Source: Elsinoe ampelina
Taxonomy: Eukaryota
Assembly (NCBI GenBank): GCA_010093995.1
Contig: ML992510.1
Coordinates: forward strand, 323,504-387,503
Length of the DNA stretch: 64,000 nucleotides
Direction: 5' to 3'
This document shows, piece by piece, positions 12,891-57,977 of this stretch. The notes under the pieces were generated by a model. It ran no database searches and was not told the origin of the DNA. It saw nothing but the letters and a program-made list of their open reading frames with translations. How positions within the stretch are numbered: position 1 is the stretch's first letter; every line of letters begins with the position of its first letter. A program made the translations under genes and the position numbers.

Positions 12891-12900
12891 CTAATCTAAG

Positions 12901-25434: not shown

Positions 25435-25741
25435 TACCCAACTTGCATGGCGGAGTCACTAGGCGTGGGGAAGAGGCAAAGATATGAGATCTGATATAGA
25501 TATGACATCTAAAGTGTATATATAGAAGCTGTGGGTCTTGGTCCTCCTCTTTTCGTGCAAGGAAAGTCGTCCAGTGAGCTTGCGATCATGGTTCCGGTCA
25601 TTCGTGATGTCTATTATATAGGAGAGCTTTTCGTGCGTGGCGTTGTGCGTATCTGACATTCAGATCATCGAGTCAAAAGAAAAGGCTGATTGGGTATAAT
25701 AAATGTGCAAGAACGGAGTAGTCGTGGCGATGAGGCTGATT

Positions 25742-33100: not shown

Positions 33101-33340
33101 GACTCTAAACTAGATTCTAAACTAGATATTAAACTAGACTCTAAACTAGATACTAAACTAGATATTAAACTAGACTCTAAACTAGATTCTAAACTAGATA
33201 TTAAACTAGACTCTAAACTAGATACTAAACTAGATATTAAACTAGACTCTAAACTAGATACTAAACTAGATTCTAAACTAGATACTAAACTAGATTCTAA
33301 ACTAGATTCTAAACTAGATACTAAACTAGATTCTAAACTA
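33101..33340. repeat. 12-bp minisatellite, 20 units (gaNNNtaaacta) with 36/72-bp higher-order pattern
   Basis: Units are gactct/gattct/gatatt/gatact + aaacta. The first 12 units form two identical 72-bp blocks. Confidence 0.97.
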
Positions 33341-34147
33341 GATTTAGTTTAGTTGTTCTCTCTACTTTATATACCCCTTTAGATTTATTAACCTTCTATA
33401 GGAGCCTATAAGAACTAACGTAGTAAGTACGCTATACTAGCTTACCCCGGAGATACTATTCTCTATAGGAGAATAAAACACTCCTCGCCTATAGAATAGA
33501 TAGAGTAGAGATTAGTCTTATAATAATTAAGGGTATACTAGTATAACACCTATTCTACTTCTATATACTTGTCTTTCTAGCTCTAATATTCTACCTTTGT
33601 TATAATTCTAATCTCTCTTATATTCTATTAGATAGAGCTATATAGATAAGATAGTACACTATACTTAGCGCTAGCGAAACGACTAACTACTACTAGAGTA
33701 GTACTAGTATAGATAACTCTCTAATAGCTTAGCTATTAGCGAGACATTTACTAAATTAGCTATAACCCTAGAGATAACTCCTATTAAAGATTACTAGGCC
33801 GGGGAAGGCCTAGCGCTAAGACTATACTACGCTAATATAGCTTCTATAGGAAGTATAGCCGATATAGGAAATAATACTATATATAAAGCGCTTCTTACTT
33901 ATATTGCTTAGCTCGAGAATATACTTAGTAGTTACTCCCTAGTTATAGCGCTAGTACTATATAGTTGTTTTAATATATAACTTAACGACATTTACCTAAT
34001 AAACCTATAAATTATAAGAGAGTATATACTAAACTTATACTACCTCGAGGCCTTAGAGTCTACTATTATAGTAAGAGTTAAGGAATTTATATATATATAT
34101 AATAACGTCTTTAAGATAGTACCGAATATCTACTTTAAAGAAGTTAC

Positions 34148-37100
34148 TATAAGAGTAGGTATATAGTAACGTATAGAACTACTAATATCTATAAGCTAGA
34201 TAGATAGATAAACTAATAGCTGCCTTTGTTCGTAGTAGCTAAAGGCTATACGAAAGACAGCTAGAGAGAGTTTGTTACGTAATAGACTTAGCTAGAGCTA
34301 TATACTAAGTCTCCTTTACAATTATCTCCCCTCTATATTTAATCGCTCTCGATTAAACTACATTCTTCGTAGGCCTCTAATTACTATTATTAGTCTCTTC
34401 TATAAGGGTAGGTTAGTATTTCTTATATAGGGGAAGAACTTAGCTTCTTTATTTACTCTCTATATCTATTATGTCTTTATTTGCTAACGACACTAATATA
34501 TTAAGGTAAACGTAGCTCTCCTCTAATAGCTATTCTTTTATATTATAAGCTAAAGCATTTGTTACTTTAAGAAACAACTAGTGCTTTAGTAAATGTATAG
34601 GATTAGTTCGTTTACTACGTAGAACTCTCTTAAAGGTTCTAAGTAAGTATTATATATCGATACTTTATAATGTTAATCCTTAGATAATACTACTACCTCC
34701 TAGGAGATAGCGACGCGTATAGATCTACCTTCTATGTTTATTGTGTTATATAGTAACTAGAACGCGCCTATATAGACACCTCTTATGCTCTAACACGTTA
34801 GTCCTTTCTATATATAGCTTCTTAAACACCTTAGTAAGCACTATAGCTCCTAGAGCTTCTCGGGCGCTACTACTATATATTACCTCTTACTACTACTATA
34901 GTAACTACGTTAGGGATATAATTAGTAAGTCTCTAGTACCTCGCTAGTAGTCCTTTAGAGGCGCTACTAATATTCGCTAGATACCCCTTATAACTATAAC
35001 CTAGAGGTTACTAAGACTTATGCTTACTATAAGTACGCGAAGGTTACTTACTATAACATTAACAACGCTATTCTACTAGACTACGTTAATAACGCCTATA
35101 GCGCTATCTAGTACTATAACTATGTCTCCTAGAACTCCGCTAACCTCGTATCTATTAAGAAGTATAACCGCTACACTAATAAGTATATTAAGGCTATAAA
35201 CCTTATTAAGGAACGTAAGTAGACTAAGGGTATATAGGACACTTACGCTAGTACTAATATTACCTCCCTCTAGGGAGAGAATATAAAGCGTATTAAGGTT
35301 ACTAAAATATATAGCCTACGCTTTACTATTAAGAATATTACTACTATTCTCTATGCTATAGGTATTAACCTTATCGAGAGTGTTCTTTGCTGCTAACTTA
35401 CCTATAGCACTACTCTAGTAAGGACCTTCTAGTAGCTCTAACCCTCTTCCGCGTAGATATCTATAGAAAGAAGTATAAGGCCGAGAAGGCCGCTAGGTCT
35501 CTAGAGCCTAAGAAGCCTATTAAGCCTACTACTCCTAAGAAGCCTAAGGCTAGGAAACTTACTACCCTAGCTAAGAAACCTACTATATTCTCTAGTAAGA
35601 GCACCTAGGCTACTATACTAGCTACCTCTATTTGCTGCTCTTTCTACTTAAACTATAATACTAACATAGCTAACGCCGATACTAATAGCAATAATAAGAG
35701 CTTTATATCTCCTAGCGGTACTATTAGGCGTAATTTGCCTATAAGCGCCTAAGCCTACGAAGCTTCCGTTAGTAATTTAGTTAGCTCTTACGCTAGTTCC
35801 GTAGTTAACTACTTTACTCTTAAGACTTGCTCCCTTACGTCCTTTAGTAGCAATAAGGCTCGTTAGCGTTACGTCGATCTACTAGCTAAGTCTCTTAAGC
35901 TTCCTAAGGGTAGTAACGCTTATTAGGCTATAGCTAACTACTACTATGCTATTAGGCACTTTCTCGTTACTATTCTCTCTATAGATAATCTTCGCGCCTT
36001 TACTATTAGTACCTACGAGATGCTTAACTTTAGTAATAGAACTATAGAGGATCTAGTAGCTTATAAGACTAACCTATAGCTAAGGTCTAGAGTAGAGGAC
36101 CCTATTATTGCTACCTACTAGAATATATATAAGAATACTCTCTACGCTACTAAGTAGAGTAGCACTAAGTAAGACTAGGTAGTTAGTGCTCTAAGCGTAG
36201 AGTTAGAGAGTTATAGTAGATAGATTCTTAGAATATATAGTTTATACTACTTATGTTTACCTCCGTACTCTCTTTATAACTCTTCTATTAGCCTTCTAGC
36301 TAACGTTTGCCTAGTACTTAGTTACTACCTCTAAGGTATTCTCTAATATCTCTTCTAGTTCCTAGGTTGCCTCTACTAGGGTATAGCCTTTCTAGAGCAC
36401 CTTTAGGAACGTATCTTCTTTCTGCCGACTATACTCTAAGATCTGCTCTACTTTATATTCTATACTATCGTCTACCTTAACTAGCCTAGGATTTATCTCG
36501 GCACCTCTATAGGAGTTATATAGCTTAAGTAAAGAGATGTAAAATATATTATAGATGTAGGACTCCTCTAGTAACTACAACTAGTACGCCTAGACTCCTA
36601 CGGAATCTAGTACCTTAAATAGTCTAAAGTACTTCGGCGCTAGCTTATGTTTTACTACCTTTAGCCTTAGGTTCTTAGTAGATAGAAGAACTCTATCTCC
36701 TATATTAAAGGATATTAGCTTACGCTACTTATTATAGAAGTCCTTCTACTACTTCTAAGCTTACTTCTAGCGCTTCTATAAGCCCTACCTTATCGAGACT
36801 AGGGTAGCTATATAATCTTACGTAGCTAGTACTCCCTTCTAAGGGAAACGCTCTTAGTCCCTATTTAGATCTCCCTTAGTATTCTTACTAGTGTATATCT
36901 TAAATAGGGACATTTATAATATCTCGTTCTAGGAGATATTTACTACGTAAGCTACTATCTTTAACTAGTAAGACTAATCCGATTAGTCCTATGCTCTATA
37001 ATAGCGTAGATACTAGATTAGAGATCTATTTTGTCGTTCTATTTGTCTATCTATTTAAGGGTAAAAAGCAGTTAATAAACGCCTTATAAATTATAATTCG

Positions 37101-40100
37101 TAGACAAACGTTTACTACTAGGCTATAGTAAAGACTGTTCTATAGTCTAATACTACTTCTTCTAGAATACTATACTCTAGTATAATTCGATCGAAAAATA
37201 GCTCGGTAAGCTACTAGGCTATAATTGTCTTCTAGCACGGGATATACTTTACTATCTTAGTAAGTCGATCTACTACTATAAGTACTACGTCGTATACGAC
37301 GCTATTTAGCTTACTTAGAGGCATATCTATAATAAAGTCTATTATTAACTCTTTCTATAGCGCCTTAGGTATTAGCAAATTTACAAGCTTACTATAAGGG
37401 GCATAGGTCCGAGTCTTTATAGTTTAGTATATATAGCACGTCTTAACGTAGTTATCGACATTATAATATATACTAGGCTAGTAGTACTTTCTAGCTAAGA
37501 GTTTATATGTTTTATTACAAGCGAAGTAACTACTATTAAACTTATTATAGTACTACTATAGTAACTCTATATAGAGTGCTATATCTTCCGGTATATATAT
37601 AGCATTGTCCTTATATAGAAGTTTACCCTTTTAATACTATACTAGGGAGCCTCTATTAGCTCTCCGAATAGGGGAGTTTACGCGCCGCTACGCTATTAAA
37701 TTCTACTTCTATAGACTATAGATAGCTTCGAGAAGCTAGTCGCTAGAACTCTCTCTCTATAGATTTTCCTCTTCTATTACTACTATAGTAGTAACATAAG
37801 ATATTAATCTTAGTATCGTGCCTAATTAGTATAGCCTTGCCTCTCTATGCTTTAACTACTTACTTTGCAGCTAGTTAGGCTAGTTAGCTTCTAGAGAACT
37901 ACCTCTAGCGTTCTTAGTATCTCTTTTATATTTAGACTTATTTTCTAGAAACTCCTTAGAGTTCCTCTAGTCCTTATTTACGTTCGAACAACTAGTATAT
38001 ACTATATAGACAGTTACGTCTACGCCTTCTTCTAAAGTAGCGCCCCTTAAGTGTTCTAATAAGGATATATAGATCTACTATACTATACCGCCTATAGCTA
38101 GCTAGCTAGCCTTTAGCTTCGACTATAAAGTTAGTAGGCTATTTATAAGGCCTATCTTATCTACTATTAGGTTAGAACGATATAAGAGAGCATTTACTAG
38201 GTTCTTAGAGCCCGCGTAGTACTTAATTACAAAGTTAAATACCTATAGATATATAGCCTACTAGGCCTAGCGACTGTTTAAATGCTTCGTCGTTATAAAG
38301 TACCTTAGGTTATTATAATTAGAGATTACCTAGACTAGGTCCGGAGCACTCTCGTAGTAGTGTCTTTACTACTTAAATACCTCTATAATAGAGAGAAGCT
38401 TCTAATTGTAGGTCTCGTAGTTCTATTCTATAGGGAGTAGCTTATAAGACTAGAAAGTAATAGAGTGCTATTTACTAGTGTCCCTAACTAGAACTAACTA
38501 GGAGATAATTGCTCTAAGTGCTAGCTTAGACGTATTAGTCTCGATCTTAATTAGCCTAGACAGCTTATAGTGCCTAAGCACTAGCGCCTTAGTAAAGGCC
38601 TTCTAGATAGTCTCGAATGTCTTTTATTCTAGGGTAGCCTACTTCTAGAGTGCTAATTGCTTTCCTTTCTATAACCCCTTAAATAACACTATTAAGACCC
38701 TTATAATCTTTAAATAGTTCTAGATAAACCTTCGATAGAAGTTAGTAAAGCTAAGAAACTACTAAACCTTGTAGTAACTCCTAGGAGTTAGCTAATCTAT
38801 AATTGTAGAAACTCTCTAGGGGTCTATTATAACTCCCTTAGTAGTTACTATAAAGCCTAAGAACTTAATCTTCTTTTTAAAGAAGTTACACTTCTTTTTA
38901 AAGAAGTTACACTTCTTTAGGTTCGCATATAACGTAAACTGCCTTAACCTCTCTAGTACCTTCTCTAGGTACTTCTCGTACTTCTCTATAGAGTTACTAT
39001 AGATTAGAATATTGTCTAAATACACTATATAGAAGTTGTCGACTAGCCCTGTAAGTGCTTAGTTAATATAGGCCTAGAACATAGCTAGGGTGTTAGTTAA
39101 GCTAAAAGGTATAACTATGTACTTAAAGTGGCTATAGTAAGTTTAGAAAGTAGTTTTCTACTTATCTCCGGCCTTAATTCTAATACGGTAGTATATATCC
39201 TTTAGATTAAGCTTAGAGTACACTACTACTTTACCTAGCCTATTAAGCGTCTTACTAATTAAGGGCAAAGAGTGTCGATTCTTAATAGTAATAGCGTTTA
39301 AGCTATAGTAGTTAACGTATAGGCGTAGACTACTATCTTTCTTTAGAACGAAAAGGATTAGTGCGCTAGCTAGACTCTCCGACCTATAGATCTATTCTTT
39401 AGCTAGCGTATTATCGAGATACTTATAGAGCACTATAAGTTCCTTTACTAAGAGGTTATAAAGGGGTCGAAAGAGAGGTTATTTCTCTTCCGTTAGATCG
39501 ATAGAGTACACTACACTGTCTATAGTATATATATATATAGAGTCGATAATAAATATATTACTAAACTCTTTTATATAGGGTAGTAGGTTTATAGCCCCGC
39601 TAGGTAGTTTCTCTATAAAGGATCTAGCTACCTTCCGAACTATTATATCTAGTGTTATATCGAACACTACTAGAGTAAATCCTTAGTTCCTAGTAAGTAG
39701 AAGGTTTATAAACTTCTTCGCTTATACTACTCTAACGCTAGCGACGTTATAGCTATATCTCTACTAGTTAGTATAGCTGTCTATTATAACACCTTAGTTA
39801 TAACGCTATAGCCTACTAAGAATAATAGGAGAGCTAGTTTCTAACGTATAGAAAACGCCTTTCAACTCTTACGTTACTCTAGTGTTATCTATAAGGTATA
39901 AGTCTACTTCGTAGGCGCTATAATAGTAAGTCTTCTTTCCCTAGAAGCCTCTTACCTAAGGGTACTCTACGTCTGCCTTTTGTAAGTTATACTAGAGTAT
40001 AAACGCTAGGTTAATAATGTTAATATTAGCTATGTTATTTAAGAGCACCTTAACCTTAACCTTACTATCGGGGCTAAGAACTAAGCTTAAGTAAGCCTAT

Positions 40101-41623
40101 ACCGGAAGTACTATAGAAGCTCTATAGCTCCGGGGTAGGCTTCTCTAGCGTTCTATAACGTGTTACGTAGGTATAGGCGTACTACCCTTTACCTTTACAT
40201 TCCTAACGTTACTACCTCTCTTGCTACTACTATTCCGGCTCGAATCTAGCTTCTTAGGACAGGAGTAGGCGTAGTGCTCTTTCTTATAATAGTAGAAATA
40301 CTTGCCTATAGAACTCCCTTAAGAATTGTTTCTACCGCCGGCCTAATAGCTAGCCCTCTAGTAAGCACCTCTCTACTAGCCCTTACTCTTACCTTTACTC
40401 TTCTACTTGTCTTCTCTCTCGCCTCTAGAGCGCTTCCTGTAATTGCCGCCGGACGCCTCTAAGGAGGCTCTATAGTACTTCTATTAGTTGTAGTCTTTGC
40501 TCTAGGTAAGGTTCTTAAGAGTAGAGGCTTATATAACAAGCTCTATATAAGTAGTTAGTACATTAGAGAACTATAGAATCTACTTACGTAGATCGGGCAA
40601 TAGTTTAGCTAGGTAGTACTAAGCTAGGTACTTACTATTATACTTTAGCTCGATTATCTCTTCTAGAGATACTAATTAATTAGAGAACTTCTAGACGCTC
40701 TTATTGTTCTTCTAGTAGTAGCTATAATAGAATAGAACTACGTTTATTTCTTAGTTAATAGAGTCTTCTACTTAATTATTAACGAAGCTTAAGAAGTTTC
40801 CTTTATATAAGAGACAATACTAGTTTATCGATTCTAGCGTGTAGAGGCGTTCCTATATCTCCTAGAGAGACAAGAAAAGGTATATTACTACGTAAGTAAT
40901 ACGTTATTAGTCTAAATTCTCCGGATTAGAGAACTATATCGGTTCGTAGTTAAAGACTATCTAGAGGCTTCTTCTAAAGGCCTAAGCCTCGGAGATGCTC
41001 TTAGCCTTATATAGCTCTAGCTCCTTAGCCTTAGTTAATAGCCCCCTAGTTATTAGCGTTATAGATTAACCTATAGTAGGTAGACCTATTAATACTAGCC
41101 CCGGAGGTACTAAAGGAACTACTTCGGTAGTTATCTAGCCTCTAGCCGGAGTAGCACTAGCATATTAAAGTCGATTATAGTTCTATACTAAATTTTTAAC
41201 TTTGTCTAGCTAGGCTATTATTACTTCTAACATAAGAGCTACGCGGCTACTATTGCTACTAGTAGAAGTATGCCTCTCTTAGCTATCTCTATTATCTCCT
41301 AGCTCTTTTAACATTCTTAACTAAGAATATAAGACGTCCTTAATAATACTACTATCTGTCTAGACGAGTTTTAAATTAGAATAATCTTATATAATTTAAT
41401 CGTCTATAGTAATAATTCTATAGGCTACAACTAAAGGGAGCTATTAGAACTATAAGGATAGGTATATAGTGACGTATAGAACTACCGATATCTATAAGCT
41501 AGATAGATAGATAAACTAATAGCTGCCTTTATTCGTAGTAGCCGGAGGCTATATAGAAGGTAGCTAGAGAGAGTTTATTACGTAATAGACTTAGCTAGAG
41601 CTACATACCGAGTCTCCCCTATA
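34148..41623 (-). mobile_element. Complete Gypsy chromovirus family C, TSD GTTAC
   Basis: 173-bp LTRs lie at 34148-34320 and 41451-41623, with TSD gttac at 34143-34147 and 41624-41628. A minus-strand PPT agaggggagataat sits next to the left LTR. RT YLD(N) is at ~39010-39025, followed by integrase and a chromodomain EYEVEQIL..VLWKGY..EATWEP at ~36350-36470. Confidence 0.96.
34900..36175 (+). pseudogene. Antisense accessory gene of Gypsy C: Cys-rich N-terminus, intron-like segments, Lys/Pro/Ala-rich region
   Basis: De-RIP gives CHKC (35025-35036) ... C ... KKCDRC (35157-35174). Intron-like segments are at 35215-35273 (gtaagt..tactaat..tag) and 35362-35407 (gtat..gctaac..tag), then EPKKPVKPATPKKPKARK at ~35500-35560. 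Exact splice phases are not resolved. Confidence 0.6.
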
Positions 41624-41817
41624 GTTACTTAGTGCTATATAGCTACTAGCTACTTAAAAGGTTAGCTTAGCTATAATTAGGACTTATATACTAAAAGCGC
41701 TAGTATTATACCCTTATAGAGTCTAATATAGTTTATAAGGGCTTAGTATTAGAGTAGCACTTAGTAGTAGCTAGTTCCGCTTACGTAACGTACTTAAATA
41801 TTCTACGTAGCGCTTAC

Positions 41818-44800
41818 TATAAGGACTAATATAGTAAGTACGCTATACTAGCTTACCCTAGAGATACTATTCTCTATAGAAGAATAAAACACTTCTCGCC
41901 TATAGAATAGATAGAGTAGAGATTAGTCTTACGACAATCGAGAGTATACTAGTATAACACCTATTCTACTCCTATATACTTATCTTTCTAGCTCTAATAT
42001 TCTACCTCTATTACAATTCTAATCTCTCTTATATCCTATTAGATAGAGCTATACGGATAAGATAGTACCCTATACTTAGCACTAGTAAAATAACTAACTA
42101 CCGCTAGAGTAGTACTAGTATAGATAACTCCTTAATAGCTTAGCTATTAGCGAGACATTTACCGAATTAGCTATAACCCTAGAGATAACCCCTATTAAAG
42201 ATTGCTAGGCTAGGGAAGAGCTAGCGCTAAGACTATACTACGCTAATATAGCTCCTATAGAAAGTATAGCTAACACGGGAAATAATGCTATATATAAAGC
42301 GCTTCTTACTTATATCGCTTAGCTCGAAAATATACTTAGTAGTTGCTTTCTAGTTATAGCGCCGATGCTATATAGTTGTTTTAATAACGTATAACCTAAC
42401 GATATCTGCCTAATAAACCTATAAATCGTAAGAGAGCGTATACTAAACTTACGCTACTCTAAGGCCTTAGAGTCTACTATTATAGTAAGAGTTAAGGAAT
42501 TTATATATATATATAATAATGTCTTTAAGATAGTGCCGAATATCTACTTTAAAGAAGTTACTTAGTACTATATAGCTACTAGCTACTTAAAAGGTTAGCT
42601 TAGCTATAATTAGAACTTATATACTAAGAGCGCTAGTATTATACTCTTATAGAGCCTAATATAGTTCTAGCTTTAGGACTAAGCCTAGAGTTCTAAAAAC
42701 TGTAGTAATAGCTATATAGTAAAGTTCTTTATGTTATACTAGCGTAGAGAATAGTTAATTACTAATTTCTATATGTTTCTCGATAGTTATAAGTTCTATA
42801 TTAAGATAGCGCCGCTCCTAGATAATACCTACTATATATAGCTTATTACCTATACTACGCCGGAGCTACGCTCGGAAGTACTCTATTAGAGAAACCTACC
42901 CCTAATTAAGGTAGAACTTCTAGTATATCTATCCCGTTTAGAGTAGAACCTACTAGGCTACTTTAACTCTATATAGGGGTAGTATAAGTATAACGCTAGA
43001 GAGAAGACTAATACTTTTACTAAAAGGCCTTACTATAACGAAGACTATAAGGGCTAAAAGGATTAGTAGAGTAGCGCTAACGCTACCTCTATAGCTCCCT
43101 AACCTAGCGCTACTTACTCTTATAACATCTATAAGAGCCTAGACTATTAGGCGCCGAACTGTCCTTAGAAGAACTCTTTAAAACGGATAGTGTCCTTACG
43201 TTTACTAATTCTAAGTAGCTCTAGCGTAATATAGAATATACGCTAAATTTGCACTAACGTTATAGTTAACCTACCTAAAGGCCCTATTAAAGGGGTAGCC
43301 CTAATAGATAGTAGTACTAATAGTAACTTTATTAGCTAGTATTTTGCTATACGCTATTATATCGCTATTAACCCTCTAGTAGTATACTAAGTATATAGCT
43401 AAGATAAATACGAATTAACTACCTATAGATATACTAAGTTAGCCTTTACTATTAAGGATAGTAAAGGAATAACGTAGGCGTCGCGCTAGCGGTTTAAAAG
43501 CGTTAATATAACTAGTTATAATCTTATATTAGGCCTACTATAGCTATTGTCCTATAACTCTAAGATTTAGTAGAGCGCTAGTATATAGAGGCATTATACT
43601 AGCGCTATATAGGTATCGATCCTAGATGTACTCTCCTTCTCTTAGGAGCTAAATTAGCCTAACGCCTAGCTCTACCTAGTATATATACGCTAGGACAAAC
43701 CTAGCGCCCCGACTCTACTATACTAGCTTAATAACTACATAGATGTTTTTAATAAGAGTATAGTAATAGCGCTACTAGGTAATAATTTTACTTACTCTAT
43801 CGATATAAAAGAGGGAAAATAGCTACCCTAGGGACCTATCTACCCCCTTAGTAAGAAGGAGCTTTAGGTACTTCGAGAGTATATAGATAATAGCTTAGCG
43901 ACGGGTTAACTCTAGTATAGTACTAGCTCTACGGGGTCTTCTATTCTATTCGTTCCTAAGAAGAATAGTTCGCTATGCCTATATATTAACTATTGTAGGC
44001 TAAATAATATTACTATTAAGAACTATTACTTCTTACCCTTAATTACTAAGATGCTTAATTACATTAAGGGTATATACTTATTTAGTAAGCTAGACCTTAT
44101 AGATGCCTACTATAAGGTATATATCTAGCGTAGTAATAAATAGAAGATAGTGTTCTACTATTACTATAGCTACTTTAAATATACTATTATACCTTTTAGC
44201 CTTACTAACGCCCTAGCTACGTTCTAGGCTTATATATATTAGTACTTAAGTAGCTTAGTAGACTACTACTATATTATATATCTAGACGATATTCTAATCT
44301 ACGCCGGCGATAAGTAAGAGTATCGCCTAGCTATTAGAAGTATACTAGACTACCTATGTAAGAATAGCCTCTATATAAAACTAAAGAAGTATATCTTCGA
44401 GGTAATATAGGTAGTATTTCTAAGCTACGTTATTAGTAGTAATAGCGTTACGATAGGGTAGCCCTAGGTATAAGCCGTTACTAACTAGCCTACCCCTACT
44501 AGCCTTAAGAAGTTATAAACCTTTCTTGGATTTACTAATTTCTACTATTAATTTATTAAGAGCTTCTTCTACGTAGCGCTACTACTAACTATACTTATAT
44601 AAGAGTTAGTCTAAGAGAAGTAAGTAGGTCTATTTCTATAGAGTAATAACGTAGTATAGGCCTTTAATAGGCTTAAAGCTACCTTTACGTAAGTGCCTAT
44701 ACTACGCTACTTTTTATTAGGTAAGCCTCTCTAGCTCGAGACTAACGCTTTAGATTTTATACTCTCTAGAGTAATCTCCTAGTAAAATAAAAGTAATACT

Positions 44801-47800
44801 CCTATATAACACTAGTACTCTATAGCGTTCTAGTCCTAGAAGCTATAAGGTATAGAACTAAACTATACTACCTATAATAAAGAGCTTCTCGCTATTATAG
44901 AAGTAGTATAGCACTAGCGCTAGTACTTACTTAGCGCTACTACCCTAATTAAAGTTCTCTTTAACTATAATAACCTTAGGTATTTCCTAACTACTAAGAA
45001 GCTTTTATAGCGCTAGGCCTACTACGCCGAGGTACTAGCGTAGTTCGATATAGTTATCTAGTACTATAGTAGAAAGACTAACTTAGCTAATAGCCTATTA
45101 CATAGGCCTAACTACTATAAGTATAAAGAAGGTATATAGGAAGAGCGCTATACGTTAGTCCCTCTCTTAGAGTAAGTATTATAAATATAAAGCGAAGGAG
45201 TTATACCTATATCTATTATAGATAAGGAACCTAAGGCTAGTAGAGCCTAGGAAGATAGTAATAAAGCTAGTATAGCTTATATGCCTTAAACTACTCCCTA
45301 ACGTAATATACTTATATAATTCTAGTATACCTCTAGAATAGTACCTATAAGTCTACCTATTACCTTAAGGAGCGCTATAGCTATACTAAGAAGAGTTAGA
45401 GTCTCTAGAGTAAGAAGAGTAGTACTTAGAGAGTACTTATGTAAATCTTCCTCTAAGCTTAACTAGTAATATTAAATTAGAACGATATACGCCTACTCTA
45501 GTATCCTAGAACGTACTACTACTTGCCTAGGAAATAATAGAGAGCTAAGGGTATAAAGACGATATAACACCTACGTAACTCTAGGACACCTCTAGTAGAA
45601 AGCTTACTATAATTTTAGACTAGAGTCGGTAGATTATATACCTCTATACTATGTAAGTACTAGTAGATAAGACTACGTATACTCCTTCTACTCCTATATT
45701 ACTCTAGAACCTTATCTACGCGGTATAATAAAGAAATACCTTTACTTATAGTAAGAAATAGAAACTTCTAAAAGAGAGAACCTTAACTAGTAATAGTACT
45801 ACCCCTAAGTAGAGCCTATCTAGTAATAGCTTACTCCGGAACGGAGATAGAGTATATATCCTAGAAGAAACTACCTTAAGAGTAGAGCTTATATAGTACA
45901 ATTATAATAACCTCTTAGGGAGTTACTTTAGCTATATAAAGACCTACCTTAATATAAGGAGGAAGTACTAGTAGCTAGGTATATCCGTTGCTACGAAAGT
46001 ATATATTAAGCACTACAACAGCTACTAAAGGTATAAGGTAACGCGGTATAAGCCTTATAGCCTTCTATAACTCTTACTAATCCTACCTATACTCGAGGCC
46101 TTATAATACTAGTCGCTTAATTTTATTACTAGCTTACCCCTAGTAGAGCTCTAGCCTAGCGTTGTTATAGATATAATTATTATATATATCTATTACTTAT
46201 CTAAGTTTAGTATCTATACGCCGACGTTAACTAAGCTTAATACTAGGGACTTTACTAATCTATTTAAAATAGATATTATAACGTTGTTTAGAACGCTAAA
46301 GACACTAGTCTTAGATAGAGAGTCTATCTTTATAAGCAAATTCTAGAGTATACTATACTAGCGCTAGAAGGCGTAACATAAGCTTAGTACTAGTTTCTAT
46401 CCGTAGATAGATAGCTAAACTAAAAGGCAAAACTAGACGCTAGAGTAGTACCTACGCTACTTTATCGACTATTACTAGACGGACTAGCTATACTAGGTTA
46501 AGTAGGCATAATTCGTATATAATAACACGTATTAAGTGTTACTATACGCTACGCTAGTGTAGTTCTTATTTATATAGGAGATACACCTACCTAATAACAT
46601 TAAGGCGCTAGTACTACCTAGCTATACGCTAGCGTATAACCTATTAGTTAATAACTAAGTATAATCTATTACCGAAACGCGCGCGGAGCTTGCCTAACAC
46701 CTATATAAAGTATAGAAAGACTAAGTACTAGCCTATAATAGAGGTTAATAAGTAAAAGTCTTCTATAATAGTAACAAGGTTATACTTAGTACTAAGAACC
46801 TTTATAGCGCTAGACCTAGCTATAAGCTATTAGCTAAGTATATTAGCCTATTTATAATTATATAACAAATTAGTACGTAGGTATATAAGCTACACTTACT
46901 AGACAAGATAAAGCTAATCTATAACATCTTTAACATTATACTACTAGAGCTATATAGGCGTAGTAAGGGCATACGCCTACTACCCCTAGAGGTAGAAGAG
47001 TAGGAAGAATATATTATTAAATATATCTTTAGTAAGAGCTATACTAGTACCCTAAAGGCGCTATACTACCTAGTAAAGTAGTAGAGTTACTCTATAGAAG
47101 AAAGTATATAGGAGCTAGCAAAAAACCTTATAAACGCTAAGGAATTACTATATAAATACGAGGTAGCTTAGCGTAAGTATAGCGCTAGCTAAATACTCTA
47201 GATATACTTAGGATTAACAAGTTAAAAATACAAATTTTAAAGTAAAGAGTACCTAGGCGTAGCACTAGGTTAGCTTAGAGTATTATTAGCTTACGTAGAG
47301 AAAATGCTAGCGTAGTAAAAACTATAGAATTATACTAAAGTAAAGGGGGTATAGCATAGGCGTAGCGCTCTAGCCCCCCCTACCTTAACTATCTATATTA
47401 TCTACCTTAGTCTTATTCTTATTATTCTCCTTAACACTATTAATACGCCTAGTTAGCGCCCTTATAGCGTTATTAATCGCCTACGTAGTAGTAGCTTACT
47501 TATTCTTAGTAACTATCTATAGGGAAGTTAGCGTAGCTTAGGCGTTATAGAGGCACACTTCTAGACTTATATAATTAGCTAAAGCCTTAAGCATAAAGCT
47601 AGTATTACTAATTATACCTAGGTATAGCGCCTTCGCTAGCTACTTAGTGTCGACTTTAAGAGTAGAGGGCGTAGTAATAGCGCTATTATAGTATAAAGAA
47701 GTTATACTATTACTATTACTCTTATTAACTACCTTACTCTTACTCTTAGTATTAGACTTACTCTATATACGCTTAGCGCTAGTCTTCTCATATATATAGT

Positions 47801-49111
47801 TAGTATAGGTAGTAATCTAGCACTTTAAAAGAATAACGTTCTTCTTAAAAGTAGTAGCATCATTACGGAGTAGTATATATATAGTAAAGTATTTATCCTA
47901 GAGCTTCTTAGTAGTAACTTAATCCTTAGAGTTAAGCTTAGTAGGCTACTAAGATTAGTATAAAGTAGACACAGCATAGACATAAAGTATACCTAGTAGT
48001 AGTATTTATTACTATAACTATAACAATTATAGTAGGTAGCCTTAGCCTTAGTAATCTAGTAGAGAGGATCCTTAATAGAGAGTATACTATCTTTAAGCTA
48101 GAGGTACTTATTAATAGTAATAGCATAGTATAAGCATAGTATAGAGTACTAGTCCTAGTTAGTAAAATTGCTCTTATAAGGTCTATAAAAGGTTAGCGCT
48201 AGCGTAGCGTAAGTACTATATATAATACTTACTCCTTAGGAACTTTAGGAGCTGTAGTTATTAAAGTACGTAAGTATATAGGAGGTAAGCTAGCGTAGAG
48301 CTAGAATAACAAAGGAAAAAAAAAATTACTACGTAGGTACTACGCTAGGTTAGTAAATAAATAACTAAATAGATAAGCCCGATAGCTAGATCTATAGTAG
48401 CGTAGGCTTAGTATATACGCTAAGTCTCCCCTACTAGCCCTTAGGCTAGTAAGGCCTAGTCTATACTATATAGTACCTAAAATAGATTACTAGTATAGTA
48501 TTAGACCTATATAAGTATAGAGCTAGTGTTAAGTAGGATACTTATACGAAGGAAGTGTTATAAAGGAGAAAAGAAGAAGAGAAGGAGAAGAGAAGAATAT
48601 ATATCTAGCTCTAAGCTAAGACTAATCTAGAGAATAATAGGTAGTAGTATATAATAATAGATAGATTCTTATATATAAAGATAATAACGTAAGAGCGCTA
48701 TATTCTATATATAAAGAATTATACTATTGTTACTATATCCGGCATATAAAGAATAGTATAGGCTACTATAGGTATGCTATATATACGAAGAGTGCGCTAC
48801 GCCTAAGAGGCGCTAGTAAGATACTCTTTCCTAGTTTTCTCCTATACTAGGTTTTCTAGGTTTTATTAAGGCTTATAGGTATAAGGGTATACCCCTTAAA
48901 GAGGAAGAATAATTATAAGGACTAATATAGTAAGTATACTACGCTAGCTTACCCTAGAGATACTATTCTCTATAGGAGAATAAAACACTTCTCGCCTATA
49001 GAATAGATAGAGTAGAGATTAGTCTTACAATAATCGAGGGTATACTAGTATAATACCTGTTCTACTCCTATATACTTGTCTTCCTAGCTCTAATATTCTA
49101 CCTCTATTATA
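41818..49111 (+). mobile_element. Complete Gypsy chromovirus family B, TSD CTTAC, inserted in the 5' LTR of A
   Basis: 198-bp LTRs lie at 41818-42015 and 48914-49111, with TSD cttac at 41813-41817 and 49112-49116. Protease LIDSG is at ~43300, RT YLDD is still intact at ~44279-44290, the chromodomain is at ~47005-47120 and the PPT is aaagaggaagaataat. Confidence 0.96.
47330..48200 (-). pseudogene. Antisense accessory gene of Gypsy B: Zn-cluster-like Cys motif followed by an intron
   Basis: Minus-strand de-RIP gives C-L-R-C (48136-48125)-x21-C-x9-C-x2-C-x6-C, then an intron at 47992-~47946 (gtatac..tactaat..tag). Boundaries approximate. Confidence 0.6.
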
Positions 49112-52100
49112 CTTACGCCTAGGGCTTAATAGTAATTAGTTCTACTACTAACGGACTATTTAGTTAGATAGGCGTTCTCTATATTATAATATATATAGCT
49201 TTAATATAAGGCTTTAATAGTTCTAATTACTCTACCTATAGTTATAATCTATTAGACTCTATAGATAACTAGAACTCTATCGGTAAGGCGCCTATACCTT
49301 ACGTAATTAATATTATAGAGATAGACTCTATCGAGTAGACTTCCCTAGAGAAAGAAGAGACTCTCGCGAAGTAGCTACTATACCTACGTACTAAGCGTAA
49401 GTATTTAGAGCTAGAGCTTAAGGCTTAGAGCCTTAAGGAAGAGATTAAGTAAATACATTATATACGTAATATAGAATACTACTAAGGAGGCTTCGACTAT
49501 AGCTCGTATACTTCTACTAAGCCCGTAGTAAGCAATATTAGTATATAGAGCATATATAGTAGTAGCGGACTATTCGTAAGACTATTCTCTAGATAACCTT
49601 AACTAAGAGAACTCTATTTCTACTAGAGTAAGACTCTAAAAGAGGTAAGATCCTTCCTAAAGAATCTCGAGGTTATCTTTACTCTAGCCTCTAAGGCTTA
49701 TTCTACCGACTAGTAGAAGGTGCTCTATAGAGTTATATTTCTTATAGGCGAGCTAAATAAGACATAGTATTACTACTACTACGTAGATAGCCTAGAAAGC
49801 TATATATAGAAGCAATTCCGCTAGTTCGTATAGGATATAGTTAATAACTCTATTAATTGTAGAATATACGTAACTCTCGTATATAAGGGAGCCTAATAAT
49901 ATAAGGGCTAATCTATCTAGGCCTTCGCCTCGGAACTTGCTATTCTTAAGAAGTAACTAGCTTTCTACTCCGAAGAGTAGAGAGTATACTATCTCCTTAC
50001 TAAGCTATAGCCTACACTATATACTACTATTATTAAATACTATACTATTCTAGCTACGCGCTAGAAGTTAGTCTCTTTAGACTTATATATCGAGTCTATA
50101 GACTATACTAGTAGTAAGCGCGCTATACAAGAAGATAAAAGTAACTACCTACGTAAGTGTAGTAGTTATAGTAGCCCCTAAGGAGAATACTACTACTAGT
50201 CTAGTAGCGGCTCTTAAGCTTACTATAAGCGTAAAGCTACTAATTTACCTATTAAACGGTTTAGTAGTTAAGGGAGTTTCTCCGACAAGTAGAAGAGAAA
50301 CACTAAGTACTATAGTTATAGCAAAACTAGTTATATTAAGCTAGAGTATAGGTCGAAGTACCTATAGAAGAATAGCAAGTCTTAGGCAGTACGTAAGGTT
50401 ACTACTATAGATAAGTCTAATAACTCTAAGTTAGGAAACTCTAAGAGCTTAGCTAAAGAGTATAACTAAGTCCTTTCTCTCTTCTAATTAACGCTTATCT
50501 ATTACTACTCTATTATAGCGCTATTATAGCGCCTATAGGGCGCAAAGACTATATGTTCCTTATAGATAATTATATAGAAGTTAATCTTATGTCTTAGGTA
50601 TTTACCCTTCGTTATAATCTACTAAGGGTTAAGCATACTTAGTATTTAAGTATATCTTCCTTCGTAGAGTAAGCCGGATTCTACTATAGCGCGTACTATC
50701 TTTACGTACGTCTAGTAGACTTCTATAGCGACCTTAGAGAGACAATTAGCCTCTTCTACGCCGTAGACTTAGAACTAGGCCCTCTAGTTATTTTAGGGCG
50801 CCTATAGTAGAGAAGATAGTATATTATTATAGATAGCACTATAGATAACTAGTCGTATAGCTACTCCTTATATATAGTTTACTTACGCAAACTAGAAGAC
50901 TTTATAAAGGACCTTAAGAACGAGCTAAGGGTATATACTATAGTATAGACTCTGTCTAAGGACTACACTTACGCTATAGGCGACCTAGCTCTACTATTAA
51001 AGTTCGTAGAGTTCTTTAACATCTTTATCTATAAGGATATTATAAATCTACTACGCCTACTAGGCGCTAAGTATACGATTAAGCTAGAGCTAGGTAGAAG
51101 GCCTCTATTCTAGCCCTTATATAATCTTTTAGTTAAGGAGCTTAAAGTGCTTAAGGACTATCTTAAGACTACTTAATTAAATAGGTAAATTAAGTACTCT
51201 ATAAGCAAGATAAGTACTTCTATTCTATTCGTGCCTAAGAAAGATAGTAGTCTATGCTTATATATAGATTATTAGGGCTTAAATAAGGTAACTATTAAGA
51301 ATTGCTATCTACTTCTACTTATTAGTAAGACGCTTAATTAGCTTAGGCAAGCCTAGTAGTTTTTAAAGTTAGATCTAAAGGATGTCTACTATAGGATTCC
51401 TATTAAGTATAGCGACAAGTAGAAGACTATATTCTATATACGCTATAGCTATTTTAAGTATTTAGTTATGCCTTTTAGATTAACTAATGCTCTAGCTACC
51501 TTTTAAGCGTATATTAATAAAGCGCTAGGTAGACTAGTTAATACTATCTATATTGTCTATCTTAATAATATTCTTATCTATAGTAACTCGAGAGAGAACT
51601 ACGTATATTACATTTATAAGATTCTAGTAAGGCTATAGAAGTTTACTTTATATACTAACCTTAAGAAATGTAAATTCTTTACTAAGGAGGTAGAATTCCT
51701 TAGCTATATTATCTCTACTATAGGTGTCTTAATAGATTCTAGTAGGGTAACTATAATTAAGAATTAGCTAAGGCTAAAGAGTTATTATAAAGTCTAGTAG
51801 TTTACTAGCTTTACAAATTTCTACTACTACTTCGTATAGTATTACTCTAAGATTATTACTCTTCTCTCTAGCCTTCTTAAAGGCTTAGTTAAAGGTCGTA
51901 AGTATAGCTCTTTCGTATAGAGTATAAGCGAATAGTAGGTATTTAAGGACATTAGGGACGTATTTACGCGTACCTCTATTCTCTACTACTATAATCCTAT
52001 ACTGCCTCTATGTATTAAAGGCGATACGTTAAAGTTTATAGTAGTAGCAATTCTGTCCTAACTATTTAATAGTACTTAGTACTCTATAGCCTTTTAGTCG

Positions 52101-54199
52101 AGGAAGTTTATCTTAGTAGAGTATAACTACGAGATATACAACTAAGAGTTATTAGTAATCGTATATATATTTAAGTAATAGTAATACTACCTCGAAGGTG
52201 CTATATATATAATTTAAGTGCTTACTAACTATAATAACCTCCGAGGATTTATAAAGCTAAAGTAGCTAAATAGCTAATAAGCCTACTAGGCTACCTTCCT
52301 TACTACTTTTAACTTTATAATAGAGTATTAGCTAGGTATAAGAAACCTAGCTAACGCACCCTCGAGGCGCTCTAACTACGTAACTAAGGAGTAGAAGGTA
52401 TCTTACCTTCTTTTAACTCTTTAGAATAAGCTCTATATCTAGGACTAGACTACTAACTCTAAAGAAACTACTCCGCTAGTTAGACGTATTTATACTATAT
52501 ATAAGGCCGCTCTAGAATAGGCCTAGGCTACCTATATACTATATAAAGGCAAAACTTCTTCTAAAAACTCCTAGAGTCTTATAACGACCTAGCAAGTCGC
52601 TATTATAGTAATAGCGAGGGAGGATCCCTTCGAGGATCTATCCGCTAACCTATTATTAGTTATAGAGCTACTATAAAGATAAGACTCTAAGATTATAAAG
52701 CTACGTTCGTAAGTAGGGAGTAGTAGAGATAAGAGTAAGACGCTATAGAATCTATAAGATAACCTCTTATTCTACTATAACGCGCTAGTTATTCCGAATA
52801 ATAGTGCTATTAAGGCGTAGATACTACGTATATACTACAACAGTAAATAGGCTAGTTACTTTAGTAAAGATAAGACACTTAAGCTTCTATTATAGAAATA
52901 CTTCTAGCTAACTATAAGAAAAGATATTAATAACTATATATAGTTATACTAAGTTTACTAGAAGTATAAGGCGCACTACTATTGCCCCTATAGCAAGCTA
53001 CGTACGCTACCGATACTAGACTACCTATAGTAAGAAATTATAATAGATTTTATTACTAACCTACTACTAAGTAAGTAAGGTAGTAGCGTCTATAATATAG
53101 TACTAGTAATTATAGACTATTATACTAAGATGTTACTATATATCCCTACTACTAAGAAGTGTATATTTATAGAGCTAGTAGAGATCCTACGTAACTATAT
53201 TATCTACTATTATAGTATTCTAAGGGGAATAGTAAGCAATTAAGAATCGGTCTTTACTAGCTAGTTCTAGAGTAAATTCTATTACGAAACACGTATAAAG
53301 CATAGGCTTAGTATAGCCTTTTACCCGTAGATAGATAGTTAAACTAAGTAGTAAAACTAAACGTTAGAATAGTACCTAAGGTACTACTATATAGAGCTAT
53401 AGAATAACTAGGCTAAATGTCTATTATAAGCGGAATTTATAAGCAATAATAGCGTTTATACTACGCTACGTATAAGCCCCTTCTAAATAATATATAGCTA
53501 CTATCTAGAGTTAGAGGTAATAGCTATTAAGCCTCGAGATAAGACTTTAGAGAGAAGAGTACTAGTAGTAGTAGAGTTAGTATAACACTTATAAGACATA
53601 TATATAAAGCTAGTAGAGTAATAGAAAGAGGCTTCTACCTACTAGACTAAGTACTATAATAGGAAGTATACGCTAAAGGTATATAGCATAGGTAACTTAG
53701 TACTACTCTTAGCTAAGAACTTATAGCTACCTATACTAAAGAAGAAGATAGAACTATAATTCCTTAGCCTATTTTATATACTTAATATAATTAAATCGTA
53801 GGCGTATTACCTAGCCTTACCGAGTTAGTATTATATCTATAATATCTTTTATATATCTCTTCTCGAACTATAGATAAGTAGAGCTAGTAAGGAGCTAGAA
53901 GAGAGTATACCTCTCGCTAACGAAGTAGATAAGTAGATAGTAGAGAAGATCCTAGGTAAGAGAACTACGAAGGGTAAGGTATTCTACTTAGTAAAGTAGA
54001 AGGACTAGCCTCTTAAGTTTAATAGCTAGGAACCTAAAGAGAATTATATAAATACGAGAGAGCTAATTGCTATATATAAGTTATAGCCGAGAGTAGCTAA
54101 GAAAGGTTACTAAAGGCGTAAATTATAGAGTATATAAGTAGACAGATTATATAAATATATAAATAGGATAAAGAGTAGACTCCTTACCTAGGGAAATAC

Positions 54200-55110
54200 A
54201 TTTTAATAAAGCGCTATACTTATACTACTATTACGGGTATTAACCTAAACTCTATACTCTATTATACTCTATATAAGGCCTTATTATAGGTATAGCGCTA
54301 GAGATACGCACCTAGCTTATATATGCCTACTTGTCCTTACTATTCTCCTTATCTACCTCTATACTAAGATTCTCCTCTATAAGTACTATAGGGGCTATAA
54401 GCTATCTACTAGCTATAATATAGTCGATTTCGATAGTAGAACTACTAGAGTTACGTACTATCTAAACCTATTAGCTATGTTTATAACGTATATAGAGCAT
54501 AGTCTAACTTACCTCTTTACTAACAGTAATTAAGCTATAAAGGCTACGCCTAATCTTCTATAGCTTCTTAACCTTCTTATACTTAAGCACGACACTACTA
54601 AGTAAGTTGCCTATAGGCCCTATATAAGGAGTTAAGACCTCGCTAACAATCTTATTCTTATTAGTGTAGTATACCTTAAGTATAGTCTTAAACTTCTTAA
54701 CCTTAGGGACGTTCTTATAGACTATAGCACATATATACTTCTTAGCTGTAGTAATACTAGCCTAGTTAGAGGCCTTAAGCTTAGTAACTATATTAAAGGC
54801 GTTAATGTATATATTACGTAGAATAGATAGAAGCAGCTTATATATATACTTACTATAGGTGTAGTATTTATACTTACGATAGAAGAAGATACTAAAGTTA
54901 CCTCTAGTATAGATATAACCTACTATAAATTAGTTACGTCCCTTATAAGAGCTCTATTAGTTTACTCTTAGCGACGCTATTAGTATACCTAGTATAGGTA
55001 TTAGCCTTCTCTTTAGAAAGTAAGAGAGTCGTAGAGTCGGCGCTAGTAGTAATAGCTCCCTAGGCGCTAGCTAACCTTACGCTATAAGTATTAGCTATAG
55101 GGGGGCTAGA
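54200..55110 (-). pseudogene. Antisense accessory gene of Gypsy A: Zn-cluster-like Cys motif, helical region, intron
   Basis: One minus-strand frame de-RIPs to TCTRCAN (~54999-54979)...HIC...RKCEYCTRGKHVC (~54880-54840)...ELRKIRRSL.SLIAVGKE, followed by an intron at 54512-54462 (gtaagt..gctaat..tag). Confidence 0.65.
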
Positions 55111-57977
55111 GTTAAATAATATAATAGTCGTAGGTAGTACACTTATATAGTAAAAGGTTAATAAAATATAGATATATTTTAAGTAGAAAAGGAGAACGTA
55201 AGGGAGAATAACAAGATTATATAGACTAACCTCTAGTATACTATATCTTTGTTATAGCTACTAGCGTAAGGCACGTATCTCCTATAATACCGCTAGAAAT
55301 TCTAAGAAAAGTAATATTATTACTGCTAATTAGCTTTAGCGCTATAGTAACTAGATAAACGCCCCTATAGGAACTAGATTCCTAGGACTACTACTACTAG
55401 ACATTATATAAGACATATATAAGACCTTCGCAAAAATGTCTTAACTATCTTATACCTACGTTACCTCTAAATAACACTACACATTATATACTTCTAGTCG
55501 AGAGCTAAGGATAGCTCTCCTAGAGGAGAAGGTAATTATAAGAGCTTAGTATTAAAGCGGCACTTAGTAGCGGCTAGTCCCGCTTACGTAATACACTTAA
55601 ATATCCTATATAGCGCTTGTACCTAGGGCTTAATAGTAATTAGTTCTACTACTAATAGACTGTTTAGTTAAATAGGCATTCTCTATATTGCGATATACGT
55701 AGCTTTAATATAAGGCTTTAACATAGTTCTAGCTTTAGGACTAAGCCTAGAGTCTTAAAAACTATAGTAATAGCTACGTAGTAAAGTTCTTTACGTTATA
55801 CTAGCGTAGAGAATAGTTAATTACTAATTTCTATATGTTCCTTAATAGTTACAAGTTCTATATTAAGATAGTACTACTCCTAGATAATACCTACTATATA
55901 TAGCTTATTGCCTATACTACGCTAGAGCTATACTCAGAAGTACTCTATTAGAGGAACCTACCCCTAATTAAGGTAGAACTCCTAGTATATCTATCCTATT
56001 TAGAGTAGAACCTACTAGGCTACTCCGACCCTATATAGGGGTAGTATAAGCGTAACGCTAGAAAGAAGACTAATACTTTTACTAAAAGGCCTTACTATAA
56101 TAAAGACTATAAGGGCTAAAAGGACTAGTAGAGTAGCGCTAACGCTACCTCTATAGCTCCTTAACCTAGCGCTACTTACTCTTATAATATCTATAAGAGC
56201 CTAGACTATTAGGTACTAAACTGTCCCTAGAAGGACTCTTTAAAACGGATAGTATCCTTACGTTTGCTAATTCTAAGTAGCTCTAGCGTAATATAGGATA
56301 TATACTAAATTTACACTAACGTTGTAGTTAATCTACCTAAAGGCCCTATCGAAGAGGTAGCTCTAATAGATAGTAGCGCCGATAGTAACTTTATTAGCTA
56401 GTATTTTACTATACGCTATTATATTGCTATTAACCCCTTAGTAGTATACTAAGTACGTAGCTTAGATAAATACGAATTAACTACCTATAGATATACTAAG
56501 TTAGCCTTTACTATTAAGGATAGTAAAGAAATAATATAAGTATTATACTAGCGGTTTAAAAGCGTTAATATAACTAGTTATAATCTTATATTAGGCCTAC
56601 TATAGCTATTATTCTATAACTCCGAGATTTAGTAGAGCGCTAGTACATAGAGGTATTATACTAGCGCTATATAGGTATTAATTCTAGATATACTCTCCTT
56701 CTCCTAGGAGCTAAATTAGTCTAATACCTAGCTCTATCTAGTATATATACGCTAGGACAAACCTAGCGCCTCGACTCTGTTATACTAGCTTAATAACTAT
56801 ATAGACGTTTTTAATAAGAGTATAGTAATAGTACTACTAGGTAATAATTTTACTTACTTTATTAATATTAAAGAGAGAGAATAGCTACTCTAGGGACCTA
56901 TCTACCTCCTTAGTAAGAAGGAGCTTTAGGTACTTTAAGAGTATATAGACGATAGCTTAGTAATAGGTTAACTCTAGTATAGCACTAGCTCTATAGAGTC
57001 TTCTATCCTATTTATTCCTAAGAAGAATAGTTCGCTACGCCTATATATTAACTATTATAGGCTAAATAATATTACTATTAAGAACTATTACCTCTTATCT
57101 CTAATTACTAAGATACTTAATTATATTAAGAGCGTATACTTATTTAGTAAGCTAGACCTTATAGATGCCTACTATAGGGTATATATCTAGTATAGCGATA
57201 AATAAAAGATAGTGTTCTACTATTGCTATAGCTACTTTAAATATACTATTATACCTTTTAGCCTTACTAACGCCCTAGCTACGTTCTAGACTTATATATA
57301 TTAGTACTTAAGTAGCTTAGTAGACTACTACTATATTATATATCTAGATAATATTCTAATCTACGCTAGCGATAAGTAAGAGTATTACTAGGCTATTAGA
57401 AGCGTACTAGACTACCTATATAAGAATAGCCTCTATATAAAACTAAAGAAGTATATCTTCGAGGTAATATAGGTAGTATTCCTAGGCTATATTATTAGTA
57501 GTAATAGTATTATAATAGAGTAGCCCTAGGTATAAGCTATTACTAACTAGCCTACCTCTACTAGCCTTAAGAAGTTATAAACCTTTCTTAGATTTGCTAA
57601 TTTCTACTATTAATTTATTAAGAGCTTCTTCTATATAGTACTACTACTAACTATACTTATATAAGAGTTAGTCTAAGAGAAGTAAGTAGGCCTATTTCTA
57701 TAGAGTAATAACGTAGCGTAGGCCTTTAATAGGCTTAAAGCTACCTTTACGTAAGTACCTATACTACGCTACTTTTTATTAGGTAAGCCTCTCTAGCTTA
57801 AGACTAATACTTTAGATTTTATACTCTCTAGAGTAATCTCCTAGTAAAATAAAAGTAACACTTCTACGCGATACTAGTACTCTATAGCGTTCTAGTCCTA
57901 GAAGCTATAAAGTATAGAACTAAACTATACTATCTACGATAAAGAGCTTCTTACTATTATAGAAGTAGTATAGTACT

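Follow-up and report, generated by a model that had tools for sequence, protein, structure and literature searches.

Coding-like blocks downstream of pol in three decayed chromovirus families of Elsinoe ampelina probably represent a known kind of antisense gene, and their zinc-cluster identity is unsupported

In a stretch of 64,000 nucleotides from Elsinoe ampelina (GenBank assembly GCA_010093995.1, contig ML992510.1, positions 323,504 to 387,503; hereafter the window, in whose coordinates all positions are given), three families of Ty3/Gypsy retrotransposons, here called A, B and C, carry extra DNA between the end of the chromodomain and the polypurine tract (PPT) next to the 3' long terminal repeat (LTR), and the question arises what this DNA encodes. 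A preliminary description of the window had proposed that each of these spacers holds an antisense, intron-containing gene for a GAL4-type Zn2Cys6 protein with an enlarged first loop, which the elements would have inherited as an accessory factor. We find that each spacer does hold an extra coding-like block between pol and the PPT and, from our point of view, the balance of the evidence inclines towards each of the three chromovirus families carrying an additional open reading frame (ORF) at this place, of the kind known as aORF-3R or brtn. Overall, the proposed anatomy is largely real, the principle behind it has already been described, and the zinc-cluster identity is unsupported.

The assignment of A (minus strand), B (plus) and C (plus) to the Ty3/Gypsy chromoviruses is given by reverse transcriptase (RT) motifs, pol matches, chromodomain-type domains, LTRs, PPTs and target-site duplications. 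The RT motif of A lies at 39022 on the minus strand, and intact pol proteins located, by tblastn, RT and integrase (IN) in A and C as well as RT in B. Pfam searches returned an SH3_Tf2-1 domain in A (E 5.6e-12), the chromodomain of which was recognised by eye only, a chromodomain above the Pfam cut-off in C (E 2.5e-6) and a weak chromodomain match in B (47013-47162, E 0.19). Measured from the end of the chromodomain to the PPT, the spacer amounts to ~2.0 kb in A (34323..36316), ~1.74 kb in B (47165..48904, PPT AAAGAGGAAGAATAAT) and ~1.45 kb in C (54085..55536, PPT AGAGGAGAAGGTAAT). Both the 1.4-2 kb of extra DNA and the existence of three families with unrelated LTRs, as claimed in the preliminary description, were hence confirmed, the latter by the lack of any LTR cross-match in a self-comparison of the window and by a direct reading of junctions and duplications.

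The spacers are also present across copies. Among contigs from X1, a DNA sequencing run of this organism, that are at least 80% alike, the depth, which is not to be equated with copy count, was 1794-1866 in the spacer versus 1855-2853 in pol for A, 11706-13535 versus 13575-18631 for B, and 15271 versus 10849-23440 for C. As the spacers are covered about as deeply as pol, they belong to the families and are not one-off captures. Two runs presumed to be RNA (X3 and X4) and a run of a second organism (X7) yielded no contig for a 20-kb stretch, a blank that is uninformative about expression.

Reading such spacers is complicated by the state of the DNA. Dinucleotide counts for the region from 33.4 to 55.8 kb gave a TpA/ApT ratio of 2.20 and a (CpA+TpG)/(ApC+GpT) ratio of 0.16, as judged against the usual thresholds for indices of repeat-induced point mutation (RIP), with a TG count of 194, and the X1 contigs differ from the window by 1819 transitions versus 37 transversions. 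This dinucleotide bias and the excess of transitions are the signature of RIP; every copy that we saw is heavily mutated, and the genes are dead relics in which most ATG codons have become ATA. With TpG nearly gone, ancestral TGY (Cys), CAY (His) and TGG or CAR codons now tend towards Tyr or stop. RIP, however, exchanges C for T and G for A, so that purines stay purines, and a three-base periodicity of purines and pyrimidines therefore survives it.

We made use of this by scanning purine content in 450-nt windows over 33.4-55.8 kb and over the rest of the 64 kb as well. Within 33.4-55.8 kb, the maxima of periodicity are the spacers, namely 34900-35500 and 35350-36250 in A, 47350-47950 in B and 54250-55000 in C, whereas most pol windows gave p values of 1e-2 or weaker and the strongest gag-pol window reached 1e-5. 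In A, the coding-like block comprises two parts that are listed on the plus strand, antisense to the element: the first extends over 34920..35379 with codon starts at coordinates of mod 3 = 0 (p 6e-7), the second over 35457..36340 with codon starts at mod 3 = 2 (p 2.6e-10, the strongest value of the window), and the periodicity weakens near 36250. The second part contains a Lys/Pro-rich stretch at 35505-35548 and a period-9 repeat. In B, the core spans 47350..47950 (p 9e-8) and is provisionally listed on the minus strand, while the block of C, listed on the minus strand and antisense to the element, covers 54201..55148 with a periodic core at 54250-55000 (p 1.2e-5). The best value found elsewhere in the 64 kb is 3e-6, and the blocks of A and B are stronger than that. 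Tandem repeats were considered as a cause of the periodicity and rejected on the basis of a repeat check; the idea that the spacers are direct or inverted copies of the elements' own gag-pol was likewise rejected (z ≤3.3 in 18 tests). Another copy of A, represented by one contig, is without 66 bases (22 codons, in frame) at 35615-35682, just after the Lys/Pro-rich repeat.

The blocks at 34920-36340, 47350-47950 and 54201-55148 all lie between the pol stop and the PPT or 3' LTR, the position by which an extra ORF is recognised, and they are separate from pol. Counted in the pol frame, stops make up 6-7% of the codons at the end of pol (10/150, 9/150 and 10/150 in the three elements), 14-18% in the gap of 22-62 codons that follows (4/22, 9/62 and 8/56), and 4-6% in the spacer cores (13/270, 12/200 and 9/250). 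Furthermore, none of 85 intact pol relatives aligned more than ~20 residues beyond the chromodomain, and 18 of the 21 relatives that aligned up to the end of the chromodomain terminate within 40 residues.

The more difficult question is which strand of the blocks is coding. Open frames occur on both strands of the spacers as codon-aligned complements of each other, and since two such frames are open together, stop counts are uninformative with regard to the strand; as RIP leaves no TGA, so are the types of stop codon. The 2184 windows of 200 codons contain 22 stops on average, against which the antisense frames fall to 5 in A (plus strand, 35402-36001), 9 in C (minus, 54549-55148) and 10 in B (minus, 47651-48250). 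The antisense coding-like frames reported in the preliminary description thus exist as stop-poor, periodic stretches, but their codon-aligned sense counterparts are equally poor in stops (6 per 200 codons in C, plus strand, 54303-54902; 9 in A, minus strand, 35651-36250). Purine content by codon position and the frequencies of eight codon classes were weak or contradictory on this point. A strand classifier based on an 8-class purine/pyrimidine codon model, which was correct in 39-40 of 45 cross-validated 300-codon windows, scored the block of C as antisense (positive values) with models trained on transposable elements and on pooled data (+3.4 to +8.4) and, to a smaller extent, with the host model (+0.8 to +1.8); for B, it gave +1 to +3.

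The comparison between A and C is more telling. In antisense translation, the first part of the A block aligned to C with a Smith-Waterman (SW) score of 79, which was reached in 0 of 500 shuffles, while the complementary translation scored 47 and was matched by 219 of 500. When the first part of A was compared with 648 frames from all over the window, a score of 79 was found only in the two frames that overlap the antisense frame of C, the next best being 68. An unweighted purine/pyrimidine alignment followed this diagonal as well, with a score that 2 of 200 shuffles reached. In the purine/pyrimidine alignment, identity between A and C decreases from the first over the second to the third antisense codon position, i.e., from 118/145 (81%) over 97/142 (68%) to 92/143 (64%). 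In RT and IN, used as controls, the third codon position is also the least conserved in the true reading, and the order in A and C consequently favours, if weakly, antisense coding, since a sense reading would invert it. Judged from these alignments, the genes of A and C probably descend from a common ancestor, and we regard antisense coding together with this kinship as likely. For B, the coding strand could be either one, and the antisense strand given here is that under which the block is listed.

Several results, set out in this paragraph and the next, weigh against this reading. The block shares its codon phase with the chromodomain frame in all three elements despite the stop-dense gap between them, a coincidence with a chance of 1 in 27 that would not be predicted for an independent antisense gene. 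Classifier scores for A are neutral (about 0, ranging from -3 to +2), and a host-trained model turns negative for the first part of A (-6.5 to -7.6) and for B (-1 to -3.3). All three blocks, moreover, are purine-rich on the minus strand, which is the sense strand for A. Together with the stop-poor sense frames in A and C, these observations would fit coding on the sense strand, either as a third ORF that follows pol or as a C-terminal extension, which read-through or splicing would make accessible, in which case the open antisense frame would be a by-product. However, pol and the block are set apart by a stop-dense gap in each element, none of the pol relatives reaches into the block, and the similarity between A and C is confined to the antisense translation. 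Under a sense reading, conservation would also be highest at the third codon position, which is the opposite of what RT and IN show. We hence consider a sense-strand gene unlikely.

As to the kinship of the blocks, the search in the other direction was less clear: with C as the query, A was tied for second place among 1314 frames, and Tyr/Lys-rich stretches elsewhere scored 82, 79 and 79. Since such frames score as high against C as A does, the similarity may partly be compositional. No pair of spacers showed similarity in an in-frame alignment of codon classes (z -1.6 to 1.0). Searches for homologues also remained blank, namely that of the antisense reading of A against 1.84 billion representatives (0 matches), those of the C and B antisense readings against a word-indexed library (none, for 'near' lengths only), those of A and C against metagenome contigs (pattern matches, no relative) and those for Pfam families with block readings from both strands. 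The queries were RIP-broken readings with X at stops, and given that even the chromodomain is barely detected after such damage, these blanks are uninformative on whether relatives exist.

The block of B showed no similarity to A or C in purine/pyrimidine, codon-class or protein-level alignments. In the purine/pyrimidine alignments, the spacer pairs reached z values of 0.7, 2.6 and 1.9, compared to 18-31 for integrase, but the method detects the homology of gag only for A and C (z 9.4; other pairs -0.9 and 1.7), and because it misses gag in the pairs with B, it is too insensitive to judge the kinship of B. One could argue from the isolated position of B, and from the lack of a homologue or domain for any block, that the blocks are unrelated passengers, i.e., fragments of host genes or mobile elements that were captured independently and play no role in the life cycle of the elements. 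A third-position pyrimidine fraction of ~0.6-0.7 in the blocks versus ~0.5 in pol would fit such a different origin. What speaks against independent capture is that the blocks occupy the identical position in three families, are present across copies and resemble the elements' own gag-pol in neither orientation, and that a weak kinship links those of A and C, which agree in orientation and relative position. Published antisense ORFs (aORFs) at this position are, according to a review, family-wide and not one-off captures (PMC7264820). Unrelated passengers therefore appear to us to be an improbable explanation as well. Of the inherited antisense accessory factor that had been proposed for all three families, the extra block in each spacer and modest evidence for antisense orientation and kinship in A and C remain, but not the common inheritance of B.

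If the blocks are antisense genes, introns could persist in them, as introns on the strand opposite to gag-pol survive retrotransposition. The reading frame of the A block shifts near 35400, and a stretch of 77 nt on the plus strand (35380..35456) that starts with GTGTTC and carries CTCTAAC 15 nt before the final GCGTAG bridges the shift without stops. Removal of this candidate intron extends the alignment between A and C and raises the SW score from 79 to 90, a value reached in 3 of 1000 shuffles. Alternative bounds (35362-35432 or 35362-35456) fit too, and the sense strand of A likewise offers GT..AG options, but without a branch-like motif. The introns that had been assumed in each family hence reduce to this one candidate in A, and none could be established in B or C. 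The argument that antisense orientation explains the retention of introns is sound in general; here, it applies to a single candidate.

We can thus outline how an antisense gene in these spacers would most likely work. It would lie on the strand opposite to gag-pol and have its own promoter within the 0.5-0.9 kb of aperiodic DNA that adjoin the PPT and the 3' LTR, and its transcription would run towards pol and end ~50-170 nt from the pol stop. In A, the gene would contain one short intron, which could persist because the sense genomic RNA leaves it unspliced. The predicted product has ~300-460 residues, in A with a basic, Lys/Pro-rich stretch, and we take it to be a putative nuclear, nucleic-acid-binding accessory factor that would act in trans on transcription or silencing of the element, while the antisense RNA might in addition pair with genomic RNA.

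A gene of this description would not be without precedent. Zhao et al. (2011, Virology 417:248) reportedly described brtn in Boty. Later articles present brtn, published in 2011, as an antisense gene that Boty-like Gypsy elements of Botrytis and Sclerotinia carry downstream of pol and ahead of the 3' LTR (PMC7264820, PMC8365987, PMC4227169). By these descriptions, brtn would parallel the blocks in that a Ty3/Gypsy chromovirus of a fungus carries an additional gene, opposite to gag-pol and placed after pol but before the 3' LTR, to which no function has been assigned. What differs is that the window holds other element families in a heavily RIP-mutated ascomycete host, all copies being dead. 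In plants, antisense aORF-3R genes are listed for maize Grande (gene23), rice RIRE2, Silene Retand and Phaseolus PvRetro13; there, they occur in most copies of a family and are without database similarity, Grande is credited with its own promoter and some aORFs with nuclear localisation, and a regulatory protein and/or double-stranded RNA is proposed as their role, with no established function (PMC7264820). Their position and orientation are those proposed here for the spacers of A, B and C; the plant elements belong to other lineages, however (Retand is a non-chromovirus), without a sequence relation to the fungal blocks, which in contrast are RIP-degraded. The principle of an antisense gene between pol and the 3' LTR, which had been put forward as possibly new, was hence already in print (brtn in 2011, and aORF-3R in plants according to PMC7264820). 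A paper on transposable elements of Leptosphaeria contains neither the term 'antisense' nor the term 'additional ORF'. By analogy with these systems, the blocks of A, B and C are probably new members of an already described kind of antisense aORF that were inactivated by RIP.

This has some consequences for the view of such genes. Extra antisense genes of LTR retrotransposons are so far on record from plants and a single fungal family, none with an assigned function. If our reading is true, two or three more fungal families would join them, two of these being related to each other, and the antisense gene would appear as a component that recurs among fungal chromoviruses and may be inherited with them, with relatives without RIP as the place to study it. 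The copies in the window are dead and consequently have no bearing on present-day activity. Purine/pyrimidine periodicity as a coding signal and codon-position conservation as a strand test could further be transferred to other RIP-degraded genomes in which ORF and homology tools fail.

With respect to the kind of protein, the preliminary description had assigned the three genes to the GAL4-type Zn2Cys6 proteins on the basis of cysteine motifs. These motifs are not present in the sequence as such, but require that Tyr codons are read as Cys. A TAY codon may descend from Tyr, His or Cys, or in two steps from an Arg CGY codon, and because of these several possible ancestors, the sequence leaves undecided whether a Cys was originally there. 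We searched all six frames of the window for the spacing C-x2-C-x6-C-x5-12-C-x2-C-x6-8-C (PROSITE pattern PS00463), with Tyr allowed for Cys. Six matches were obtained, two of them on the sense strands of the spacers and none on the antisense strands. When the first loop was relaxed to 6-25 residues, the number of matches rose to 89, so that motifs of this kind are to be expected by chance. The motifs described for A and C could not be located as written with the Tyr/Cys substitutions tried. The one of B (CLRC...) was found on the minus strand at 48050..48215, reading from 48215 to 48050, where the DNA is stop-dense (14 stops in the first 70 codons) and aperiodic. A motif common to all three families also fails on the missing similarity of B to A and C.

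The possibility that the antisense genes nonetheless encode GAL4-type proteins with an enlarged first loop, the Cys codons of which were turned into Tyr by RIP, draws on the near elimination of TpG, whereby any TGY codon would now be TAY. It also draws on the first half of the signature, which, in a pattern that was relaxed after inspection and again with Tyr as Cys, occurs at nine of 127,996 codon positions, including two near the antisense frame starts of A (35019) and C (54872); a stricter version with the leading residue occurs three times, once in A. This first-half-like spacing, with three Tyr codons read as Cys, is all that A and C have in common with the GAL4 type (PF00172). The full spacing of six Cys is absent, and the half-motifs of A and C stand at non-aligned positions in both alignments of the two blocks and are thus not conserved between them. 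A comparison with the Pfam profile PF00172 (Zn_clus) gave no match at E values up to 1 for any reading on either strand, which is weak evidence, as RIP turns TGY into TAY and the profile would fail even if the domain had once been present. Other copies vary at 1856 sites, and of the 40 that were listed, none falls into the motif codons. A literature search that joined Zn2Cys6, LTR retrotransposon and antisense found no paper. Taken together, we consider a GAL4-type identity to be very unlikely. One could speculate more broadly that a whole clade of ascomycete chromoviruses, including A, C and Boty-type elements, has long passed on the antisense ORF by vertical inheritance as an accessory gene. 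Its product would be a Cys-rich nuclear protein that binds zinc and with which the element regulates its own transcription or silencing by the host, the Cys residues being hidden by RIP, but this, too, is a far-fetched scenario.

The elements that carry the blocks are nested within each other, as worked out from the self-comparison, from the reading of junctions and from joints in X1 contigs. Chromovirus A (34149..41622, minus strand, 7,474 bp) is inserted in an element of the B family with a target-site duplication GTTAC(T), and its junctions were checked against the uninterrupted B-family site at 42540-42580. Its LTRs of ~174 bp (3' LTR 34149..34322, 5' LTR 41449-41622, minus strand) correspond to the self-comparison pair 34146-34314 / 41449-41617, and its PPT at 34323..34337 was read directly on the minus strand as AGAGGGGAGATAAT. 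Chromovirus B (41808..49111, plus strand, 7,304 bp) has LTRs of ~206 bp (41808-42013 and 48905-49111) and sits inside the 5' LTR of C with the duplication CTTAC; X1 contigs that join 41812 to 49112 represent the empty site of this insertion. Chromovirus C spans 41734-55723 in total, with its first 74 bp at 41734-41807 to the left of B and its main part at 49112..55723 (plus strand); its LTR measures ~190 bp (3' LTR 55537-55723), and its target-site duplication is TAGTT. In X1 contigs, a loose end at 41733 resembles the PPT region of C.

A and C are both inserted into the same B-family host element (plus strand), the 5' part of which lies at 33406..34148 and which resumes at 41623-41733 and then from ~55729. 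Its segments match B at 41817-42562 (33406-34148, 90%), 42556-42666 (41623-41733) and 42657-44915 (55719-57977, 91.5% over 2.26 kb). A truncated second copy of C is found at 13081-17218 on the minus strand (87% identical over 4 kb). As neither this copy nor the continuation of the host element (55729-57977) includes a spacer, the window holds one copy of each spacer.

The LTRs of A, B and C that begin at 34149, 41734, 41808 and 55537 all start with TATAAG in plus-strand coordinates. In A, this is the end of the LTR as the element reads (minus strand), while in B and C, TATAAG comes after the PPT. The shared hexamer may represent a common ancestral terminus in which TG was mutated to TA by RIP.

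Beyond these elements, the window consists of AT-rich fungal DNA that is interrupted by a 7-kb GC-rich gene island. The island (24046-30704, 48-61% GC) lies between RIP-degraded repeats and is followed by a run of N at ~31170-31700; it carries genes for a member of the D123 family (E 6.5e-98) and an Rce1-like CAAX protease (E 1.9e-7) as well as a 901-residue ORF without a Pfam family. Just upstream of the B-family element at 33406, a 12-bp tandem repeat (33099-33344) comprises 20.5 copies with a 36-bp higher-order unit and a 96% match. On the plus strand, another Gypsy element at 58000-64000, with RT at ~61395 and integrase up to ~63644, leaves the window before its spacer would be reached, and a Copia-like RT motif is located at 22257.

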